Origin: Minisyncoccota bacterium
Lineage (GTDB): Bacteria; Patescibacteriota; Minisyncoccia; Phycocordibacterales; UBA9973
Length of the DNA: 64,000 bases
Assembly: GCA_041662525.1 (NCBI GenBank)
Contig: JBAZSF010000001.1
Location: 41,383 to 105,382, forward strand
Direction: 5' to 3'
Made by a program: the position numbers and the translations under genes. Below, one piece after another: positions 13,980 through 50,983 of the stretch (its first letter is position 1; each line of letters starts with the position of its first letter). Below the pieces are notes generated by a model. That model was given only the letters and a program-made list of their open reading frames with translations, made no database searches and was not told the DNA's origin.

Positions 13980-16967
13980 ATGATTTCCCGAATATATGTA
14001 GCGTCCAAAGGAAAAGCTGACTTTATTAACTCTTACTTAATTTCCCATAAGTTGGGGAATGACAAAATCCTGAAAATCGCGGAAGCTCTAACAAACCCTA
14101 TCCTTGAAGAATTTTCTATAAATAAATTCCCAGCGACAGCTAAATTTTCTTATGCCATAGAAATAGGTTTCAAGCCAGGAGTCACAGACAATGTCGGGCA
14201 TACTGTGGAGGAAACTATTATGGACTTATTGCATATTGCTCCGGACGTTGGACGTCGGGGATTCGGACGTCCAACGTCCGGAGCTGATTTAGCAGTTTAT
14301 ACTTCTAAAATTTATTTAGTTTCTAATTCTAAAACAGAAGAGGTTGAGAAGATAGCTCTCTCGCTACATAATCCTCTGATTGAGCGTTCACATATCATAA
14401 GTATTTCTGATTTAAAAAAGAAAGGTTTACCATTAGAAGTTCCTAAAGTCATTTTGAAAAAGGCTACCCCAGTCATAAATGTCTCTCTTGATGTATCTGA
14501 CGAAGAACTTATAAAAATCGGTAGTGGAGGAATAATGGATGATAAGACAAAAGAAAGACGCGGTCCTTTGGCTCTTGATTTAGCGTCAATGAAAGTAATC
14601 CAAGAACATTTCAAAAAATTGAAAAGGGAGCCGACTGATATTGAGCTAGAATCTTTGGCACAAACTTGGTCTGAGCATTGCAAACATACTATTTTTGCAA
14701 ATCCTATCGATGACATCAAAGACGGTTTATATAAAACATATATAAAAGGCGCAACGAATTTAATTCGCAAACAAAAAGGAGCAAAAGATTTTTGTGTTTC
14801 TGTATTTAGTGATAATTCTGGAGGAATTATTTTTGATAAGGATTATTTAATTACTCATAAAGTAGAAACACACAATAGTCCTTCAGCTCTAGATCCATTT
14901 GGTGGAGCCATCACTGGCATCGTAGGTGTAAACCGGGACACAATAGGCTTCGGACTAGGCGCTAAACCGGTAGCTAATCTTTATGGTTTTTGCTTCGGTA
15001 ACCCTGAAGATAAAAGATCACTCTTTCGTGATAAAAATCTAACTCAAAAAATGCTTTCACCGAAAAGAATTATGGAGGGTGTAGTAAAAGGAATAAATGT
15101 TGGTGGAAATTGTTCTGGTATACCGACTCTTTCTGGTTTCGTTCGTTATGATGATAGATATAGAGGAAAGCCTTTGGTTTTTGCTGGTACGGTAGGGTTG
15201 ATTCCAAGAAATTTACCAGCCTCACCGAGTCTAGGCGGGCCCACCTTGGAAGGAAAAAAAAGGCTTTCACATCTCAAAAAAGCGCAAAACGGAGATTATG
15301 TCGTAGTTGTCGGAGGGAGAGTAGGTCTAGATGGTATTCATGGGGCGACTTTTTCTTCAGTGGTGATGGATTCAAGTTCTCCGGCGACTGCAGTGCAAAT
15401 CGGTGACCCAATAACTCAGAAAAAATTAAGTGATGCATTAATCAAAGAAGCGCGAGATCTGAATTTATATAACAGCATCACAGACAATGGCGCTGGAGGA
15501 ATTTCTTGTTCAGTTGCTGAAATGGCAAAAGAATGTGGCGGTGCAAAAGTTTCTTTAGAAAAAGTTCCATTAAAATACCCCGATCTTCGTCCATGGGAAA
15601 TTTGGATTTCAGAATCACAGGAACGTATGACTTTATCTGTGCCAAAGAAAAAATGGAATTTATTTAAAGAATTAATGGAAAAGAGAGGAGTAGAAGCTAC
15701 TATCATTGGAGAATTCACAAATTCTGGTAAATGTATTGTGGAATATTCTAATAAAAAAATCATGGATATTCCTATGGATTTTTTGCATGATGGTTTGCCG
15801 GAACAGCATTTATATACAAAACCCATTCAATTCACCTCTCCCCAAACCCCTCTCCATTATTTAGATAATGGAGAGGGGAAAGCAAGGGGTGAGGATTATA
15901 CGAAAGCCTTAGAAAAATTACTCGGTAGTAAAAATATCAGTGGATTTTCTTTTATTTCAGAGCAGTATGATCACGAAGTTCAAGGATCTTCTGTTTTAAA
16001 ACCACTCTCTGGACGAGGTCGTATCAATACCGATGCACAAGTTTTTCAGCCTGTTTTAAATTCAAACAAAGGAGTCATTCTATCTTCGAGCACTTATCCT
16101 TCATATGGAGACATTAGTACTTATCATATGGCCGCCTGCGCTATCGATAATGCTATTAGAAATACTCTTTGCGCTGGTGGAACACTTACACACTTAGCAA
16201 TTTTGGACAATTTCTGCTGGTGTTCATCCTATGATCAAACACGTTTAGCACAGCTCGTAGATTCAGTAAAAGCTTGTTACGACTATGCCGTCGGTTATGG
16301 AACACCCTTTATTTCTGGTAAGGATAGTATGTTTAATGACTTTAGGGGTTACGATAGTGACGGTAACCATGTGACTGTTTCTATCCCACCGACACTTCTT
16401 ATTTCAACGATTAGTGTTATGCCCGATTTAAATAAAACTGTTTCTCCAGAATTTAAAAATATAGGTGATATAATTTATTTATTAGGAGAAACAAATGATG
16501 AACTCGGAGGAGGAGAATATCTTAAAATGCTTGGAGCTATTGGCAACATTGTGCCCAAAGTAAATTTAAAAAAGAATATCAAAACTTATCGCGCCCTAGA
16601 AAAAGCAATTCAAAAAGAATTAATAGTTTCGGCAATGTCTGTTAATTCTGGCGGGCTGGCTATAGCACTCGCCAAAGCATGCGTAGGAGGAATGGTTGGA
16701 TGTAATGTTTCCCTTGACCCCATAGGCAAGATCTATGGGGTAGATGTAAAACTTTTCTCTGAAAGTCAGGGAAGGATTTTAGTTTCTGTAAATCCTAAAA
16801 ATATTTTAGGATTTGAAAAATTAATGAAGAATATTTTTTATGCCAAGTTGGGCAAAGTGGCCAAAGATAGTAAATTTGTTATTACGGATGGAAATAAAAA
16901 GATAATTGAAACAAGTGTAAAAAAATTGCACGATGCTTATCATAAATTTTCTAACTCACAAAAATGA
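13980..16967 (+). CDS. purL: phosphoribosylformylglycinamidine synthase subunit PurL with ~180-aa N-terminal (PurS-like) extension
   Basis: REPTDIELESLAQTWSEHCKHTIF and THNSPSALDPFGGAITGIVGVNRD motifs. The FGAM-synthetase core starts at about residue 215. No glutaminase domain (a separate purQ follows). Confidence 0.9.
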   Translation: MISRIYVASKGKADFINSYLISHKLGNDKILKIAEALTNPILEEFSINKFPATAKFSYAIEIGFKPGVTDNVGHTVEETIMDLLHIAPDVGRRGFGRPTSGADLAVYTSKIYLVSNSKTEEVEKIALSLHNPLIERSHIISISDLKKKGLPLEVPKVILKKATPVINVSLDVSDEELIKIGSGGIMDDKTKERRGPLALDLASMKVIQEHFKKLKREPTDIELESLAQTWSEHCKHTIFANPIDDIKDGLYKTYIKGATNLIRKQKGAKDFCVSVFSDNSGGIIFDKDYLITHKVETHNSPSALDPFGGAITGIVGVNRDTIGFGLGAKPVANLYGFCFGNPEDKRSLFRDKNLTQKMLSPKRIMEGVVKGINVGGNCSGIPTLSGFVRYDDRYRGKPLVFAGTVGLIPRNLPASPSLGGPTLEGKKRLSHLKKAQNGDYVVVVGGRVGLDGIHGATFSSVVMDSSSPATAVQIGDPITQKKLSDALIKEARDLNLYNSITDNGAGGISCSVAEMAKECGGAKVSLEKVPLKYPDLRPWEIWISESQERMTLSVPKKKWNLFKELMEKRGVEATIIGEFTNSGKCIVEYSNKKIMDIPMDFLHDGLPEQHLYTKPIQFTSPQTPLHYLDNGEGKARGEDYTKALEKLLGSKNISGFSFISEQYDHEVQGSSVLKPLSGRGRINTDAQVFQPVLNSNKGVILSSSTYPSYGDISTYHMAACAIDNAIRNTLCAGGTLTHLAILDNFCWCSSYDQTRLAQLVDSVKACYDYAVGYGTPFISGKDSMFNDFRGYDSDGNHVTVSIPPTLLISTISVMPDLNKTVSPEFKNIGDIIYLLGETNDELGGGEYLKMLGAIGNIVPKVNLKKNIKTYRALEKAIQKELIVSAMSVNSGGLAIALAKACVGGMVGCNVSLDPIGKIYGVDVKLFSESQGRILVSVNPKNILGFEKLMKNIFYAKLGKVAKDSKFVITDGNKKIIETSVKKLHDAYHKFSNSQK
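14238..14284. repeat. 47-nt perfect GC-rich palindrome inserted in frame in purL
   Basis: gctccggacgttggacgtc-ggggattcg-gacgtccaacgtccggagc has a 19-bp perfect stem and encodes APDVGRRGFGRPTSGA within the N-terminal domain. Confidence 0.7.
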
Positions 16968-18748
16968 AAACAGAAACTAAACCACATTCGACAGGCTCAG
17001 TGTCTACAACCTGCCAAAACTGTAAAGAAGACTTCGTTATTGAACCGGAGGATTTTAATTTCTACGAAAAAATGAAAGTTCCAGCTCCGACTTTTTGCCC
17101 TCTTTGTCGAGCAGAGAGGAGGTTTGCTTTTAGAAACGAACGTAAACTTTTTAAGGTAAAAGATACTTTTACTGGTAAAGAAATTTTTTCATTATACCCA
17201 GAAGAAAGTGGCAGAAAAATTATTACTCAAGAAGAGTGGTATGGGGATGGCTGGGATGCGATGGAATATGCCCGCGAATATGATTTTTCTCGACCGTTTT
17301 TCGAGCAATTTTTTGAACTTCAAAGAGAAGTGCCTATTTACAATCTAAATGTACAAAGAATGATTAATAGTCCATATTCTGGAAACGCTACAGCGTTAAA
17401 AAACTGTTACCTCTGTTTTCATTCTAATTATACTGAAGATAGTATGTATGGCAGTGCGAATGATCATTGCAAAGATTGCGTGGATAATTCTCACATTCAA
17501 TATTCAGAACGATGTTATGAATGTTTTTGGTTAGAAAAATGTTATCAATGTTATTTTTCTATAATGTGTGGAGAATCACACAATCTTTTTTTATGTCGTA
17601 ATTGTTTAGGATGCAATGATTGTTTTGGCTGCGCAAATTTACGCAAATCCTCTTACTGTATTTTCAATAAGCAATATTCTAAAGAAAATTATTTTAAAGA
17701 AATAGAAAGTATGAAATTGAATACTATTTTCGGCTTAAAAAAAATGCGAGGTAAAGCTAGAGCCTTTTGGTTAACTCAGCCAACAAAATCTCAACATGGT
17801 CTTAAAAATTTAAATTCAACAGGTTCTCATGTTACACATTGTAAAAATGTGAATGATAGTTTTTTGATCAGAGGAAGTGAAAATATGCGTTACTGCCAAC
17901 ATATGCAAGTACCTGCGAATAAAGATTGCTATGATGTTTCTAATTGGGGAGAAAATACAGAACTTTCTTATGAGACTTTAGTGTGTGGTGAAAATGCCTA
18001 CAACATGAAATTTAGTTTCAATTGCTGGCCGACATGCACGGACAGTGAATACTGCATGGATCTCTTTAGTTGCTCAGATTGTTTTGGCTGTGTGGGTTTA
18101 AAGAAAAAACAATATTGTATTTTCAATAAACAATATACTAAAGAAGAATACTATCAGATAATAGAAAAAATTAAAAAACAAATGGATGATATTCCTTATA
18201 CTGACAAGCAAGGTCTTATTTATAAGTACGGAGAATTTTTCCCAATAGAATTTTCTCAGTCTGGATATAATAATACTGTCGCAATTCAACATTTCCCACT
18301 TACGAAAACAGAAGCAGAAAAAAAGGGATACCTATGGGTAGAAGCGCCCCAGAGTGAATATAGAATTACTATTAAATCATCCGAACTTCCGAATTCTATT
18401 CCTGAAGAAAATGAAATTTTAAAAGAAATTATAGAATGCGAGAATTGTAAAAAAGCTTATCGGATAATGGAAAATGAATTAATTTTTTTGCGTAAAGAAA
18501 ATCTGCCTCTGCCTGATTTGTGTCATGATTGCAGATATGATAGAAGAATAAAGGATAGACTATCGATCAGATCGTATGACCAATCTTGCATGTGCGGAGG
18601 AACTTTAGACGAAACTGGAATTTATAAAAATACCGTTAAACATCTCCATGCAGATGAACCGTGCGGAGAGAAATTTAAAACTGGACACGCTCCAGAAAAT
18701 AAAGAGATAGTTTATTGTGAAAAATGTTATCAACAAGAAGTTTACTAG
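16964..18748 (+). CDS. cysteine-rich multi-zinc-ribbon-like protein of unknown function (594 aa); paralog of 47951..49681
   Basis: ATGA start/stop overlap with purL. About 50 Cys arranged mostly as CxxC pairs. N- and C-terminal C-x2-C...CP-x-CR ribbons; two internal ~170-aa repeats ending YCIFNKQY(S/T)KEEY; CRNCLGCNDCFGC run. Confidence 0.75.
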   Translation: MKTETKPHSTGSVSTTCQNCKEDFVIEPEDFNFYEKMKVPAPTFCPLCRAERRFAFRNERKLFKVKDTFTGKEIFSLYPEESGRKIITQEEWYGDGWDAMEYAREYDFSRPFFEQFFELQREVPIYNLNVQRMINSPYSGNATALKNCYLCFHSNYTEDSMYGSANDHCKDCVDNSHIQYSERCYECFWLEKCYQCYFSIMCGESHNLFLCRNCLGCNDCFGCANLRKSSYCIFNKQYSKENYFKEIESMKLNTIFGLKKMRGKARAFWLTQPTKSQHGLKNLNSTGSHVTHCKNVNDSFLIRGSENMRYCQHMQVPANKDCYDVSNWGENTELSYETLVCGENAYNMKFSFNCWPTCTDSEYCMDLFSCSDCFGCVGLKKKQYCIFNKQYTKEEYYQIIEKIKKQMDDIPYTDKQGLIYKYGEFFPIEFSQSGYNNTVAIQHFPLTKTEAEKKGYLWVEAPQSEYRITIKSSELPNSIPEENEILKEIIECENCKKAYRIMENELIFLRKENLPLPDLCHDCRYDRRIKDRLSIRSYDQSCMCGGTLDETGIYKNTVKHLHADEPCGEKFKTGHAPENKEIVYCEKCYQQEVY

Positions 18749-46473: not shown

Positions 46474-47310
46474 ATGAACAGAATCAATTTGAAACTTATA
46501 TTTGCCTTAATTTTATTGGTTTTTGTATCTCTACCAATATTCACCTCCTCTCTCTTAAATTTTGAAAAAGAAAGAATAAAAGAATTAAATTATCAAAAAC
46601 TTTTACAAGAAGAATTGGTTCGAAAGGAAGCTCAAGAAAAAATAGAAGAAAAAAATTATTTAATGGGTAATTTTGATCCTAGCACTAGAAAAGATTTTGT
46701 TTTAATACCCATAGAATACACGACCAATAAAAGTAAGATGTATTTAAGAAAAGAAACCTTGGAAGCCTTTTTAAAAATGCGAGATGCCGCTCTAAAAGAT
46801 AAGATAGATTTAAAAATAGCTTCCGCGACTAGGAATTTTGATTATCAAAAAGATTTTTGGAATAAAATATGGACTGGGGCCATATTTTTAAATAAAGAAA
46901 ATTTATCAAAAAGCATACCCAACAATCAAGAAAGATTTAAAAAAATATTAGAGTATGTCGCTGTTCCGGGTACATCTCGTCATCACTTCGGCACAGATAT
47001 AGACCTAAATGGTGGAAATATTTATTATTTTAATTCTGAAGTAGGTAAAAAAGAATATGCATGGCTTGTAAAAAATGCCCCGCTTTTTGGCTTTTGTCAA
47101 CCATATAATTTAAAAGAAAATAATAGGATAACAGGTTTTAATGAAGAAAAATGGCATTGGTCTTATCTACCTCTTGCAAAAAAATTTATGGAAGAATATA
47201 AAGATCTAGTGAAAAATGAAGATATAGAAGGATTTTTAGGAGATGAAAATGTATCTGGAGAGGATCTAATAAATAATTATGTGCTCAGTATAAATCCTAT
47301 CTGTCTTTAA
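46474..47310 (+). CDS. D-alanyl-D-alanine carboxypeptidase-like (peptidase M15B/VanY family), secreted
   Basis: VPGTSRHHFGTDIDL...WHWSY (LAS metallopeptidase H-x-D / EWWH-like motifs). Start moved to Met 46474 (signal peptide MNRINLKLIFALILLVFVS) to avoid overlap with the mraY start. Confidence 0.7.
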   Translation: MNRINLKLIFALILLVFVSLPIFTSSLLNFEKERIKELNYQKLLQEELVRKEAQEKIEEKNYLMGNFDPSTRKDFVLIPIEYTTNKSKMYLRKETLEAFLKMRDAALKDKIDLKIASATRNFDYQKDFWNKIWTGAIFLNKENLSKSIPNNQERFKKILEYVAVPGTSRHHFGTDIDLNGGNIYYFNSEVGKKEYAWLVKNAPLFGFCQPYNLKENNRITGFNEEKWHWSYLPLAKKFMEEYKDLVKNEDIEGFLGDENVSGEDLINNYVLSINPICL

Positions 47311-47924
47311 CTTTTAAAATATTTTTTATAAAGACCATACTCTGACAATACCTCTCGCAAAGTTAAAGTTACTACAATAGAAATAATTATAGCTAAATTT
47401 ATGTTTACAAACATAAGAAAATAGAACGTAACAGCGCCTGCAAAAACTGCCATAATATAACCAGATTTTTTATGAAAAGCGAAAGGCGCATCCCCCATCA
47501 CCGCATCCCGAAGAACCCCACCACCAAAACCAGTAATCATCCCCATAAAAATACAAGCGAGAGTAGTCATAATTCCATAACCGTTATTATGAAATAAATA
47601 ATTATAAGTTATGGAAGTTCCAATAATCGCAAAAGCGGCCAAACCGACTGAATCCAGAAAACGAAAAAAAGTAAACCATCTTTTAAAAACATGCGGTACC
47701 AAATAAGTCGCAATTCCACCGGCTATCGCAAGCAAAAGATAATTTGGATCTTTGAGATAAAAAAGTGGTGTACGCCCGATGACTAAATCACGAAAGGTTC
47801 CCCCGCCCACCGCCGTAATCACACCCAAAAGCACTACCCCAAAAACATTTAGCTCCCGTCCTCGCGCTTTAAATGCTCCCGCCACCGCAAAAGCTAATGT
47901 TCCAATGAGATCAAGAATATACAT
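47307..47924 (-). CDS. UPF0126 / TRIC-like membrane protein (YadS/YicG family)
   Basis: Two internal repeats each with GGGxxRD (AVGGGTFRDL, GFGGGVLRDA). Confidence 0.7.
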   Translation of the reverse strand: MYILDLIGTLAFAVAGAFKARGRELNVFGVVLLGVITAVGGGTFRDLVIGRTPLFYLKDPNYLLLAIAGGIATYLVPHVFKRWFTFFRFLDSVGLAAFAIIGTSITYNYLFHNNGYGIMTTLACIFMGMITGFGGGVLRDAVMGDAPFAFHKKSGYIMAVFAGAVTFYFLMFVNINLAIIISIVVTLTLREVLSEYGLYKKYFKS

Positions 47925-47950
47925 AAATTTATTTTAACACATTGTATAAA

Positions 47951-49681
47951 TTAATAAACTTCTTGTTGGTAACACTTCTCGCAATAAACAATCTCTGGCC
48001 TTTCTGGGGCATAACTGGTCTCAAATTCTACTTCACATTTTTTGGTGCCGTGCGTATGATTTTCTTTATTGCACATACACTCTCTGCGCCAGAGTTTGCT
48101 GGGTCCTCTATTTTTAAAACGTTTAAGATGACGGCACTCAGGACAGTTACGTGGTATTGGTATTTGCATTCTTTTATAAAAAGCTAACTCATCTACAATA
48201 ACTCGATAATTTTTATTGCATTCCATGCATGCAAAAACCTCCTTATTTACATCAAAATCAGAAGATAATTCTAAAATGGAATCTGGGAAAGTTTTCCAAT
48301 CAATAGTTTCCTTGCCATATGTCCCACGCGGAGTATCTTCCCATTTGAAACCCTGCGCTAATGCTTCTTCTTTTGTTAGTGGAAATTCGTCCATAACCGA
48401 AGACTCATTATAGCCAAACGGAGATAATTCTTTTGGAAAAAAATCTCCGTAAATCCCCTCTTGTTTCATTTTTTCTACAATTTCTGCTTGGAGTTTTTCA
48501 TATTCTTCTTTAGAATACTGTTTATTTAAAATACAATAAGAACCTTTTATTAAACCAACACATCCAAAACAATTATTAGAATTCGGGCAATTTAAACAAT
48601 ATTCCATAAATTGTGAGCCCCAGCAATATTGAGAGCAAGTAACATTTGATGCTTCAAGCCCGGTATTTAGAGTATTATAAATCAATTCTGCCGTGCGCCC
48701 TGCAGTATTGCAATCCATACAATCTTTTGCCCCGCGCCAAACATGCATGGAATAAGCATTGTCTTCTGCGTCATAAGAATGAAAACACTGACGATTATTT
48801 TTGACGTTCGTCATATAATTTCCCGTAGAATTTACGGCATTAAAAATTTCAGCAAATTTTCTAGGTTTGTCTTTTATAAAATTTTGAAATTCTTTTTTAA
48901 AATTTTTCATACCCGAATGTGTGTCTAATTTAAAAGATTTTAATTTATTTTCATATTCTTCTTTGGTGTATGGTTCATCAAAAATACAATACTTTTGTCC
49001 CCGTAAATTTATACAACCCAAACAATTTGAGCAATTTCGGCAATCAAGAAGAAAGGAACTGTCAAGACAGCTATGGCATCCTTTGGAAAATCGTAAATTA
49101 TTACAGTCATAACAATCATCAACTTCGTACGATAGTTCTACTTTATTCGTAAAAGAACAATCGACTAGATCTTTTGAAAGCTGAATCCAATAACAATTGA
49201 TGCAATTCTCATTATTTGAGCTTTCTATGATCACATAACAGTTTTTATTATCAGCCGTATAATTTAAGTAATAACAATTTACATTTCTTAAGCCAGTCAA
49301 AGCTGGTTTTGGAACTTTTTTCCAAAGTTCACTAAACTGCTTAAAGAAAGATTCATTAGAATTATAATTTTGAGCATATTTATTAGCATTTAGGTCATCA
49401 CCATACCAACAATTAGAACACCAACTAGGGTAAGTTTTATTTGGACTAAAAATTGAAATTGTATCTTTTTTACAATTATCACAAATACGCTTGTAAAAAC
49501 ATCTTTCATTTTTAAAACAAAGTCGAAGTTGCATTCGACATTCTGGACAATTTTTAGGTGGCAATACTCCAATCTTTTCATAAAATCCAAAATCATCCGG
49601 CTCAATCGTGAAGTTTTTTTGACAACTTTGGCAAGTAGTAGGCACTGAGTCTTGCGAATGTGTTTTAGTTTGTACTTCCAT
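47951..49681 (-). CDS. cysteine-rich multi-zinc-ribbon-like protein of unknown function (576 aa); paralog of 16964..18748
   Basis: Same architecture as 16964..18748 and an identical C-terminal EIVYCEKCYQQEVY; 17-nt overlap with scpB. Confidence 0.75.
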   Translation of the reverse strand: MEVQTKTHSQDSVPTTCQSCQKNFTIEPDDFGFYEKIGVLPPKNCPECRMQLRLCFKNERCFYKRICDNCKKDTISIFSPNKTYPSWCSNCWYGDDLNANKYAQNYNSNESFFKQFSELWKKVPKPALTGLRNVNCYYLNYTADNKNCYVIIESSNNENCINCYWIQLSKDLVDCSFTNKVELSYEVDDCYDCNNLRFSKGCHSCLDSSFLLDCRNCSNCLGCINLRGQKYCIFDEPYTKEEYENKLKSFKLDTHSGMKNFKKEFQNFIKDKPRKFAEIFNAVNSTGNYMTNVKNNRQCFHSYDAEDNAYSMHVWRGAKDCMDCNTAGRTAELIYNTLNTGLEASNVTCSQYCWGSQFMEYCLNCPNSNNCFGCVGLIKGSYCILNKQYSKEEYEKLQAEIVEKMKQEGIYGDFFPKELSPFGYNESSVMDEFPLTKEEALAQGFKWEDTPRGTYGKETIDWKTFPDSILELSSDFDVNKEVFACMECNKNYRVIVDELAFYKRMQIPIPRNCPECRHLKRFKNRGPSKLWRRECMCNKENHTHGTKKCEVEFETSYAPERPEIVYCEKCYQQEVY

Positions 49682-50258
49682 TTTCTTCTTTTAATTCCCC
49701 CACCTCCGCAGATAAATCTTCTAAATTTTTAGCTGCAATATTAATAGAGTTATTAACTTCATCATAGCCTGGCAATTCTTCCACTGATCTTACTCCCATA
49801 AAAGATAGCAACTCAAAACTTGGTTTATAAATAAATTTCCGACTATCTTTCATATCTGTTGTTTTCTCTACAAGCCCTCGAATAGACAAAGCGCGTAAAG
49901 TGAAACTGGAATTTACCCCTCTTATATAATCAATCTCCGCTCTACTTACGCCATTTTTATAAAGAATAATAGAAAGTGTTTCCAAGCTCGCTTTAGAAAG
50001 CTCTTTATTCAACTCTTCTTTTTGCAAGTTTTCTATAAGTTCACTACATTCTGGAGCCGTGCCAAGCATAACATCATCTTCTTTCTCTATCACAACCACA
50101 CCTCTTTCTTTAAAACTTTCTTTCAATTTTTCTATTGCCTCGTTTATTTCTATCTGTCCCACTTTAAAAACTTCAGAAAGTTTCTTTCGTGACATTGGTT
50201 CTCCTTTCCAAAATAATATTGCTTCTATTTTCGATTCTAAATTTTTGTCTAAATTCAT
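49665..50258 (-). CDS. scpB: segregation and condensation protein B
   Basis: IEAILFWKGEPMSRKKL N-terminal winged-helix; 4-nt overlap with scpA. Confidence 0.85.
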   Translation of the reverse strand: MNLDKNLESKIEAILFWKGEPMSRKKLSEVFKVGQIEINEAIEKLKESFKERGVVVIEKEDDVMLGTAPECSELIENLQKEELNKELSKASLETLSIILYKNGVSRAEIDYIRGVNSSFTLRALSIRGLVEKTTDMKDSRKFIYKPSFELLSFMGVRSVEELPGYDEVNNSINIAAKNLEDLSAEVGELKEENGSTN

Positions 50259-50983
50259 AAAATTTGTTTTTCCATAATAATATCCCCTCCATCAGTTTCT
50301 TGGATTGCATCAAGTATCCCTTTCCTCACAAGTTCTAGCATAGCAAGAAAACCAACAATGACAATTACTTTTTCTTCACGGGTGACTTGTTTTCCACCAC
50401 CTGTAAAATCTTTAAAATTCATCTTAATAGAATTTTGTATCCTCTCTGTTAATTTATCTATCATTTCTTCGAGACTAATAACTTTTCGTACTTCTACTTT
50501 TGGTAAAAATACCTTTTGAGGCATGGCACCTACAACATCTCGAGCAAAAACCATCATAGAATCCTTAGTGATTTGTTCGTCCGGTAAAAATACTAAAACA
50601 TTATTTTTCTTCTCTAGTGGCGCGAAAATTATTTTCTGACCAAAATTATCTTTTATATTTCCGCCAAGTTTTGTAAAAAGCTCATAAAGACGAAGTCTCT
50701 CTTCTAGATTTTTTATATCTCCCTCTTCTTCATTTGTCAGATCTAAATTTGGCAATAATGATTTTGATTTGATTAAAAGTAAAGTAGATGCCACAACAAC
50801 AAAACTTGAAATATCTGAATAATGCAATCCACCTAATTTATTCATATAATTCAAATAATCTTCAGTCACTGCAGAAAGAGACACATCACTTATATGGAGT
50901 TTTCTTTTTTCGATTAATGTTAAAAGTAAACCAAATGGCCCCTCAAAACCAGTCATTTTTATTGTATAATTTTCTGTTCCCAC
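50255..50983 (-). CDS. scpA: segregation and condensation protein A
   Basis: FEGPFGLLLTLIEKRKLHISDVSLSAVTEDYL N-terminus. Confidence 0.85.
   Translation of the reverse strand: MGTENYTIKMTGFEGPFGLLLTLIEKRKLHISDVSLSAVTEDYLNYMNKLGGLHYSDISSFVVVASTLLLIKSKSLLPNLDLTNEEEGDIKNLEERLRLYELFTKLGGNIKDNFGQKIIFAPLEKKNNVLVFLPDEQITKDSMMVFARDVVGAMPQKVFLPKVEVRKVISLEEMIDKLTERIQNSIKMNFKDFTGGGKQVTREEKVIVIVGFLAMLELVRKGILDAIQETDGGDIIMEKQIL

Follow-up and report, generated by a model that had tools for sequence, protein, structure and literature searches.

A stretch of 64,000 nucleotides from a Minisyncoccota bacterium contig (JBAZSF010000001.1, positions 41,383 to 105,382, G+C 34%; hereafter the window) carries two copies of a gene for a long, Cys-rich protein, each set among housekeeping genes. 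The product of the first copy, gene A, is identical to MFA6257478.1, a 'hypothetical protein' from a Candidatus Paceibacterota metagenome-assembled genome (MAG). By tblastn the window holds exactly two family copies, gene A and a paralog, B, which align over their full length with 37% identity and 54% positives (BLASTP, E 2e-123); this bears out the end-to-end similarity that an earlier sequence-only reading of the same DNA had put at roughly 40% by eye. The genes concerned are:

47951-49681, minus strand: gene A, family member, complete coding sequence, 576 aa, 43 Cys; stop codon at 47951-47953
16964-18748, plus strand: paralog B, 594 aa, between purL and purQ; 4-nt ATGA overlap with the purL stop
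49665-49681, minus strand: 17-nt overlap of the scpB 3' end with the gene A start (ATGGAAGTACAAACTAA), read from the sequence
49665-50258, minus strand: scpB (Pfam SMC_ScpB, 1.3e-38), upstream of gene A and co-directional
50255-50983, minus strand: scpA (Pfam SMC_ScpA, 3.6e-15), upstream of gene A and co-directional
47307-47924, minus strand: UPF0126/Gly_transporter membrane protein (Pfam), 26 nt downstream of gene A

Pfam confirms the names given earlier to scpA, scpB and the UPF0126 gene, and further identifies VanY, a family-4 glycosyltransferase (MraY-like) and an M17 peptidase among the neighbours of gene A. The sequence-only reading had also described gene A as translationally coupled to scpAB, and paralog B as linked to purL instead. 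Both overlaps are present as described, and that with scpB would permit coupling; an overlap does not by itself prove it, however, and genes in these genomes are generally packed tightly in one direction: 483 of the 669 neighbours of family genes surveyed below lie on the same strand. A promoter and terminator scan found no terminator in the gap between gene A and the UPF0126 gene, and nothing decisive in this AT-rich DNA. An 81-aa, TTG-initiated open reading frame (ORF) antisense to the 3' end of gene A (47942-48187, plus strand) is unsupported and very likely spurious.

Architecture of the protein

The gene A product appears to be soluble, without signal peptide or transmembrane segment: neither a transmembrane segment nor a signal-like N-terminus occurs in any family copy, and the maximum 19-residue hydropathy has a median of 0.83-0.91 against a transmembrane threshold of 1.6. 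Its full-length AlphaFold2 model (mean predicted local distance difference test, pLDDT, 83.7; predicted template modelling score 0.87) and the alignments described below divide it into a double zinc ribbon, a β-solenoid (S1), a second β-solenoid (S2), an acidic segment (M) and a second double zinc ribbon homologous to the first:

49307-49654, minus strand: N module, aa 10-125, double zinc ribbon plus helices, net basic (pLDDT 88-94)
49538-49633, minus strand: ribbon N1 (C17, C20, C45, C48), zf_Tbcl-like, with the motif FYEK..P..CPxCR
49409-49483, minus strand: ribbon N2 (C67, C70, C88, C91), CxxC-x17-CxxC, optional
48932-49306, minus strand: solenoid repeat S1, aa 126-250, ending in CRNCSNCLGCINLRGQKYCIFDEPYTKEEY
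48482-48856, minus strand: solenoid repeat S2, aa 276-400, ending in NCFGCVGLIKGSYCILNKQYSKEEY
48248-48481, minus strand: M segment, aa 401-478, acidic, with the pattern YGDFFP.E.SPFGYNE....FPLTKEEA (conservation 0.67-0.74)
47954-48247, minus strand: C module, aa 479-576, ribbons C1 and C2, with an invariant-like tail IVYCEKCYQQEVY

The terminal ribbons and the two repeat ends of the form YCI(F/L)..Y.KEEY, noticed at the outset, are found in the gene A sequence, and the internal duplication they suggested is supported by profile-profile alignments built from 165 full-length family copies, in which S1 matches S2 with a probability of 100% (E 2.4e-38) and the N module matches the C module with 99.7% (hhalign, E 7.6e-26). 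The M segment is modelled at pLDDT 93-96 and has no analogue in the PDB. Charge is distributed unevenly along the protein, the ends being net basic (family medians +2 for the N module, +4 in gene A itself, and +4 for the C module), the solenoids acidic (-4 and -3) and the M segment more so (-6; -9 in gene A).

Family proteins contain 22-45 Cys, which behave differently in the ribbons and in the solenoids. Ribbon Cys are 87-100% conserved overall; those of N1 reach 98-99% and all four of C2 (C535, C549, C567, C570) reach 100% among the 165 copies. Optional ribbons are inherited as tetrads, with phi up to 1.0. N2, carried by about 56% of 280 copies and missing in paralog B, is gained or lost jointly (phi 0.96-1.0 among C70, C88 and C91, 0.54-0.56 for C67), and the Cys of C1 (C485, C488, C513, C516) co-vary across the same 280 copies with phi 0.75-0.92. 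Solenoid Cys, 12-78% conserved, vary nearly independently (phi at most 0.5), so that obligate metal sites are unlikely to make up the Cys-rich body; conserved, co-inherited Cys clusters of an Fe-S, ferredoxin-like or metallothionein-like kind were not found in the body, and only the ribbon Cys form tetrads.

From their sequence we infer that the four Cys4 ribbons are zinc-binding sites. The spacing of N2 (C67-x2-C70-x17-C88-x2-C91) is exactly that of the small CxxC-x17-CxxC proteins of Methanosarcina mazei, for which zinc binding was found by inductively coupled plasma mass spectrometry (PMC12704099), and the C module has C549-x17-C567-x2-C570. The terminal modules also share their Cys4 knuckle spacing with zf_Tbcl (PF13451), zf_Tbcl_2 (PF23477) and TIGR04272, and the motif C..C...F....(D/E).FY.K...P..CP.CR is visible in both N1 and C1. 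One relative (P0080) scores 30.5 bits to PF13451 through its N1 ribbon (cut-off 24) and two others 17.6-18.4, while the best relative for PF23477 (P0035) reaches 26.5 bits (cut-off 27). The gene A protein stays below the cut-offs of PF23477 (15.2 bits) and TIGR04272 (15.5 bits, cut-off 36) and has no PF13451 match at E<=1. Proteins of the zf_Tbcl and CxxC-x17-CxxC kinds are small, stand-alone or repeated ribbons of unknown function; in the present family, by contrast, a duplicated β-solenoid of about 350 residues and a conserved acidic segment, neither covered by any model, lie between two ribbon pairs.

For the central region the best structural matches are Cys-rich β-helix proteins (insect antifreeze protein 1m8n, ice-binding protein 3ult, left-handed β-helix transferases and curli CsgA), with which it has in common regular short coils and Cys within the repeat. 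Those proteins, however, are extracellular and disulfide-bonded, or are enzymes, whereas the family is predicted to be cytoplasmic and its solenoid Cys are individually dispensable; neither recognition by hidden Markov models (HMMs) nor close superposition was found for the repeat β-helix families (left-handed hexapeptide, pentapeptide, insect antifreeze). Scans of A and B returned no whole-protein model in Pfam or NCBIfam, a PDB sequence search gave no match above threshold, and Foldseek of the full-length model against the PDB gave none with E<=0.001. The known parts would thus be the zf_Tbcl-type ribbons and a generic β-solenoid, while the whole protein, its YCI(F/L)NKQY.KEEY junctions, the M segment and the gene island described below appear to match no curated family, structure or described system that we found.

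Two variants of the architecture were seen. A 136-aa mini member (L145:2122-2532; L numbers denote loci, P numbers proteins) joins the N-terminal residues 1-34 to the C module (462-569) without solenoids; either it arose by deletion or it is a ribbon protein in its own right. In P0386 (731 aa), the only such case, a GNAT domain (Acetyltransf_1, E 3e-8) is fused to the N-terminus of an otherwise full-length member, possibly through a gene-call fusion.

Size, distribution and conservation of the family

With clustering at 50% identity, an exhaustive profile search returned 5,156 representatives, of which 2,157 have E<=1e-30, and nearly all are 545-600 aa long with an end-to-end match; word-index searches gave at least 6,134 and at least 7,994 matches among the best 8,000 candidates scored, and a scan of GTDB (one genome per species) gave at least 591 confirmed relatives. 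With the exception of one 2-kb contig, the named relatives among the GTDB matches listed are all Patescibacteria of Paceibacteria lineages, and the lineages with the family include Nomura-, Staskawicz-, Lipton- and Harrisonbacteria and Minisyncoccia. We take the family to be very large and, as far as these searches reach, restricted to Patescibacteria (Paceibacteria). One member (L059) lies on a contig labelled 'uncultured Gammaproteobacteria' (CAYZAZ010000094.1, 2,185 bp), and many in one TPA (third-party annotation) data set are labelled 'uncultured Candidatus Saccharibacteria'; these labels are probably artefacts of binning or labelling and do not reflect true occurrence outside Paceibacteria. 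Database names of family members are 'hypothetical', 'uncharacterized' or 'zinc-binding domain-containing', and no description of the family was found in the literature searched (on PF13451, on Cys-rich or zinc-ribbon families of Patescibacteria, and on links between dnaK and type IV coupling proteins). There was no PADLOC match to anti-phage defence for A or B, their best PHROGs matches had only E>=0.0046, and no phage or viral sequence matched in INPHARED (tblastn) or among IMG/VR viral contigs.

Copy number and paralog diversity were assessed in 85 family-anchored loci plus the window, which together hold 183 family ORFs; many of the contigs come from groundwater, the Hainich wells among them. 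Nearly all are intact, 165 being full length (540-680 aa), and they occur in tandem arrays of up to six; copies within one locus have a median identity of 41%, clustering of the sample gives 30 groups at 45% identity and 59 at 50%, and a single MAG represented by two contigs (L040 and L050) has at least 7-8 copies. Between orthologs of A, dN is 0.11-0.15 with synonymous sites saturated (pS about 0.7-0.8), and selection is accordingly read from the bound that dN is small and not from a dN/dS ratio; on this reading each paralog type appears to be under strong purifying selection. Between types, identity is lowest in the solenoids (0.20-0.35); within type A it is highest there (0.86-1.00 between A and its orthologs), and the ribbon ends, common to all paralogs, have the reverse pattern. 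Such a pattern is to be expected if recognition surfaces that are stable and specific to each type are carried on a shared framework, and is unlike arms-race hypervariability.

The argument made earlier for a real protein family over a spurious ORF holds, given thousands of intact homologs, low dN, and contexts and overlaps that recur in the closest relatives. Homologs absent from related genomes, together with disrupted frames, would have suggested decaying duplicates; the thousands of homologs and the proportion of full-length copies are the opposite of this. Variable genomic positions, slots in which one paralog replaces another, occasional fragments and the single 136-aa deletion derivative might still be taken to mean that family members are decaying or selfish, function-less insertions, but most copies are full length, purifying selection is strong and orthogroups are kept across many genomes, so that conservation effectively refutes this explanation.

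Changing occupants of the scpB and purL-purQ slots

If gene A acted in chromosome segregation and B in purine synthesis, as their start/stop overlaps with scpB and purL might suggest and as the sequence-only reading implied, the positions of the two should be informative. In the closest relatives the arrangement is indeed identical. L167 and L168 carry A orthologs (87% and at least 90% identical) in the order M17-x-scpA-scpB-A-UPF0126-VanY(-)-mraY-ftsW-murG and retain the scpB overlap (17-23 nt), and the sister genome L166 has purL-B-purQ-purF-purN. A family gene also occupies the scpB slot of six other loci and the purL-purQ slot of two, and to this extent homologs do recur beside scpAB and pur genes in related genomes. 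In these farther relatives, however, the occupant is another type: across the six loci with the scpA-scpB-...-mraY-ftsW-murG block the flanks are 57-83% identical to the window and the family gene 41-44%, and in the two purL-X-purQ loci (L021:5983-7719, L044:5977-7722) the flanks are 70-80% identical and X only 40% to B. Such slots imply paralog replacement or reshuffling at fixed sites. Loci with an other-type occupant of the scpB slot include L019:3005-4738, L024, L037, L046 and L060.

Conversely, A orthologs of 79-80% identity adjoin holB/frr and ArsP/PALP elsewhere, an A-type member of 63% identity lies at mreBCD/tgt, only 6 of 85 loci have scpB close to a family gene, and both A and B types occur in the dnaK/ATPase island of other genomes (see below). 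Because slot occupants change and A orthologs sit in unrelated contexts, the local operon is no guide to function; the functional tie to chromosome segregation or purine synthesis is not supported, and we consider it very improbable. In one further context (L002:9353-13704, and L003) the neighbours of an A-type ortholog are a serine recombinase, a GmrSD-like gene, a Rep protein and an EcoRI-like methylase, which together make up a mobile or defence patch.

Linkage to VirD4-like ATPases and a dnaK island

The 669 non-family genes in 84 of the family-anchored loci were clustered as a survey of neighbours. Only one cluster is enriched, with 22 genes in 17 of the 84 loci (the next largest has 9), and it comprises VirD4/TrwB-type coupling proteins (TrwB_AAD_bind, T4SS-DNA_transf, TraG-D_C). 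These VirD4-like ATPase genes are always co-directional with family genes and often directly adjacent. Patescibacteria carry 5,713 coupling-protein (t4cp) genes in 2,918 genomes, or about 2 per genome (PMC12102498), and against this background the enrichment near the family has P about 4e-16. Two subtypes can be distinguished: a zf_Tbcl_2 ribbon is strongly matched (E 1e-15) in the long one, which also has a disordered tail, and is absent from the short one; both have Walker A at about residue 44 and are without a transmembrane segment.

Family and ATPase genes meet in a characteristic island, (grpE)-[family]n-PaaX-like(-)-dnaK-long ATPase-[family]1-3-short ATPase-dnaJ, which encodes DnaK (Hsp70, E 2.5e-247), DnaJ and GrpE together with a divergently transcribed PaaX_M-like gene. 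The typical order (L121, L124, L148, L143) is two to four family genes, the PaaX-like gene on the opposite strand, dnaK, a small ORF, the long ATPase, one to three family genes, the short ATPase and dnaJ. Of the 148 genes in or next to 30 islands that belong neither to the family nor to the ATPases, Pfam assigns 19 to HSP70, 18 to PaaX_M, 14 to DnaJ and 9 to GrpE. Orthologs of both window types lie inside the island, those of B (66-72% identical) directly downstream of the long ATPase and those of A (50-70% identical) in the array upstream of it. Because their orthologs are inside the island and the window is without island genes, we read A and B as dispersed members of the family. Overall, the genomic association of the family with soluble VirD4-like ATPases and the DnaK operon is one in which we place considerable confidence.

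Two other island genes deserve mention. The PaaX_M-like gene (173 aa at L121:6632-7156, minus strand, with equivalents in 18-20 islands) lies divergently just upstream of dnaK, and is a candidate regulator of the chaperone, ATPase and family genes, possibly replacing HrcA. In some islands (L148:13998-15794, L124:14610-16439 and L153:12010-13767) the family genes that lie between the ATPases are interspersed with a gene for an ABC exporter of about 600 aa (ABC_membrane plus ABC_tran).

The presence of the family in a grpE-dnaK-dnaJ operon with a divergent PaaX-like regulator, and its high Cys content, would also be compatible with stress-regulon metal or redox proteins that buffer or sense zinc or oxidants, co-regulated with heat shock in the manner of an Hsp33-like holdase and with no direct link to the ATPase; domains of the CxxC-x17-CxxC kind do bind zinc (PMC12704099). 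The poorly conserved and independently varying solenoid Cys are unlike obligate metal sites, however, Pfam scans matched none of the Hsp33, ferredoxin and metallothionein families, and buffering would leave the many type-specific, highly conserved solenoid surfaces unexplained, so that we consider this explanation quite improbable. There is some likeness to type I DnaJ (Hsp40), also a Cys-rich zinc protein encoded with dnaK and grpE and with a possible function in client specificity. The family differs in having no J domain (neither DnaJ, DnaJ_CXXCXGXG nor DnaJ_C was matched by Pfam in A, B or 8 relatives), and a canonical DnaJ is encoded separately in the island.

Exported cargo or nucleic-acid binding as unlikely alternatives

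The tight linkage to ATPases of the VirD4/TrwB type raises the question of export, in which family members would be substrates or effectors recruited by VirD4 and sent through a type IV secretion system (T4SS) into host cells, the C-terminal module serving as recognition signal and DnaK/DnaJ keeping the cargo export-competent. T4SS are widespread in Patescibacteria (PMC12102498). The family resembles VirD4 effector and adaptor families in its linkage to the ATPase, its many paralogs in arrays, its shared basic C-terminal module of about 100 aa, its divergent bodies and the lack of a Sec signal peptide. The XVIPCD effectors of Xanthomonas are families that share a coupling-protein-binding C-terminal domain, and the layout of the arrays is reminiscent of theirs. 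The differences weigh more heavily. Here the ATPases are soluble, without a membrane anchor, and stand in a dnaK operon and not by a T4SS: no channel component or relaxase is found among the 25 Pfam families listed as matched by at least two of the 148 island genes, and neither a membrane-anchored coupling protein nor a T4SS channel (VirB4, VirB6, others) is present at the locus, the coupling-protein linkage holding at the level of the family and not in the window. Only 148 of the 5,713 t4cp genes of Patescibacteria are near virB4, and t4cp, unlike other T4SS genes, is not essential for epibiotic growth; exaptation for other functions has been raised (PMC12102498). Toxin and enzyme domains are lacking in family members, conservation within each type exceeds that of many neighbouring housekeeping genes where an arms race would produce variability, and a fold with four zinc sites would be a poor substrate for unfolding. 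Translocation is, we think, unlikely.

A second possibility is that the basic ribbon ends bind DNA or RNA, with the solenoids giving the targets, and that the proteins work with the VirD4-like ATPases, whose counterparts in conjugation are motors dependent on DNA, on, for example, imported DNA or specific RNAs. Both terminal modules are net basic with a conserved Arg after the second knuckle (CPxCR...R...R), coupling proteins of the VirD4/TrwB kind bind DNA (Pfam TrwB_AAD_bind), and the same Cys motif is found in transcription-related proteins (PMC12704099). Yet the solenoids and M segment are acidic, there is no supporting fold, and competence, recombination and RNA-processing genes are not linked beyond chance, making this possibility, too, an unlikely one.

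A proposed adaptor or client role

We propose instead that the Cys4 ribbons bind zinc and serve as generic docking ends, that the paired solenoids act as specificity surfaces, and that the family would thereby form an intracellular panel of target-specific adaptors, or dedicated clients, of an orphan hexameric VirD4-like motor together with DnaK, DnaJ and GrpE. In this genome and its closest relatives A and B may have moved secondarily to the scpAB and pur operons, where they would probably be transcribed by read-through from the host operon promoter and where their position would have no functional meaning. To this composite reading, of zinc-stabilised adaptors or clients of an ATPase/Hsp70 machinery, we assign a probability of about 0.4. 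Its parts differ in strength. That this is a soluble, modular zinc-ribbon/β-solenoid family, multi-copy and with conserved types, we hold with high confidence, while the adaptor mechanism as such is tentative and the odds are against it.

Several observations weigh against the adaptor or client reading. The reciprocal survey, of 80 metagenome loci anchored on the ATPase, includes 45 of at least 12 kb; family genes are present in 32 of these, in 24 of them adjacent and on the same strand, but the other 13 have an ATPase pair without the family, and since the sample was seeded from family-adjacent ATPases and leans towards lineages resembling the seed, the figure of 71% is probably inflated for Patescibacteria overall. 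Ten loci without the family have the ribbon on the long ATPase as well, so that its presence there is uninformative about a link to the family. Neither a VirD4-like ATPase nor dnaK, dnaJ or grpE is present in the window, which links A and B to the island by orthology only, and the solenoid bodies, which would carry the specificity, are modelled at only about pLDDT 59-75. The role is read from gene neighbourhood and the pattern of conservation alone, and co-location with dnaK could reflect shared regulation or a permissive insertion site in place of physical partnership. The family HMM revealed no hidden remote members in the family-less ATPase loci. In two of these (L115:12077-13510, L117:12235-13854) the long ATPase is followed by a protein with a Lamin-Tail-Domain and a PKD-like domain.

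The novelty lies in the family and its genomic context and not in a demonstrated mechanism, and the existence of a second copy in another operon, modest by itself, is of value as a lead to the family and to a testable ATPase partner. Patescibacteria genomes are tiny, yet many Paceibacteria spend several 1.7-kb genes on this family, and its neighbourhood offers a concrete, testable candidate for the role of orphan coupling-protein ATPases, a question raised in PMC12102498. Should ATPase and family be physically linked, a conjugation motor would have been put to a new use, and a major radiation of uncultivated bacteria might possess a further layer of proteostasis or of interaction with hosts; the zinc-capped double solenoid would also be a new architecture for structural study. 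It is tempting to speculate that the approximately 5,700 orphan VirD4-like ATPases have their missing partners in this family, and that with DnaK/DnaJ/GrpE the two form an unrecognised ATP-driven handling system in which the hexamer is either steered by the adaptors or loads them as host-bound cargo, although we regard this as improbable as it stands.

Possible exchange between paralogs

Gene A might be a mosaic in which the 3' end of an earlier occupant of its slot has survived. The last 56 residues of its product are closest to non-A types (0.79), and residues of about 526-575 give 0.72 for the A ortholog L002 and 0.48 for L049, in a region that is conserved in all types. At the other end of the gene, third-position identity between A and B is 0.85 over the first 20 or so codons (49622-49681, minus strand; 16964-17023, plus strand) against about 0.43 elsewhere in the genes, and the two share a rare, long version of the N-terminus (ETK.HS..SV.TTCQ.C), which is missing from the A orthologs in the loci compared. 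The high third-position identity together with this rare variant common to both suggests that the shared 5' ends arose by exchange between the paralogs inside this genome.

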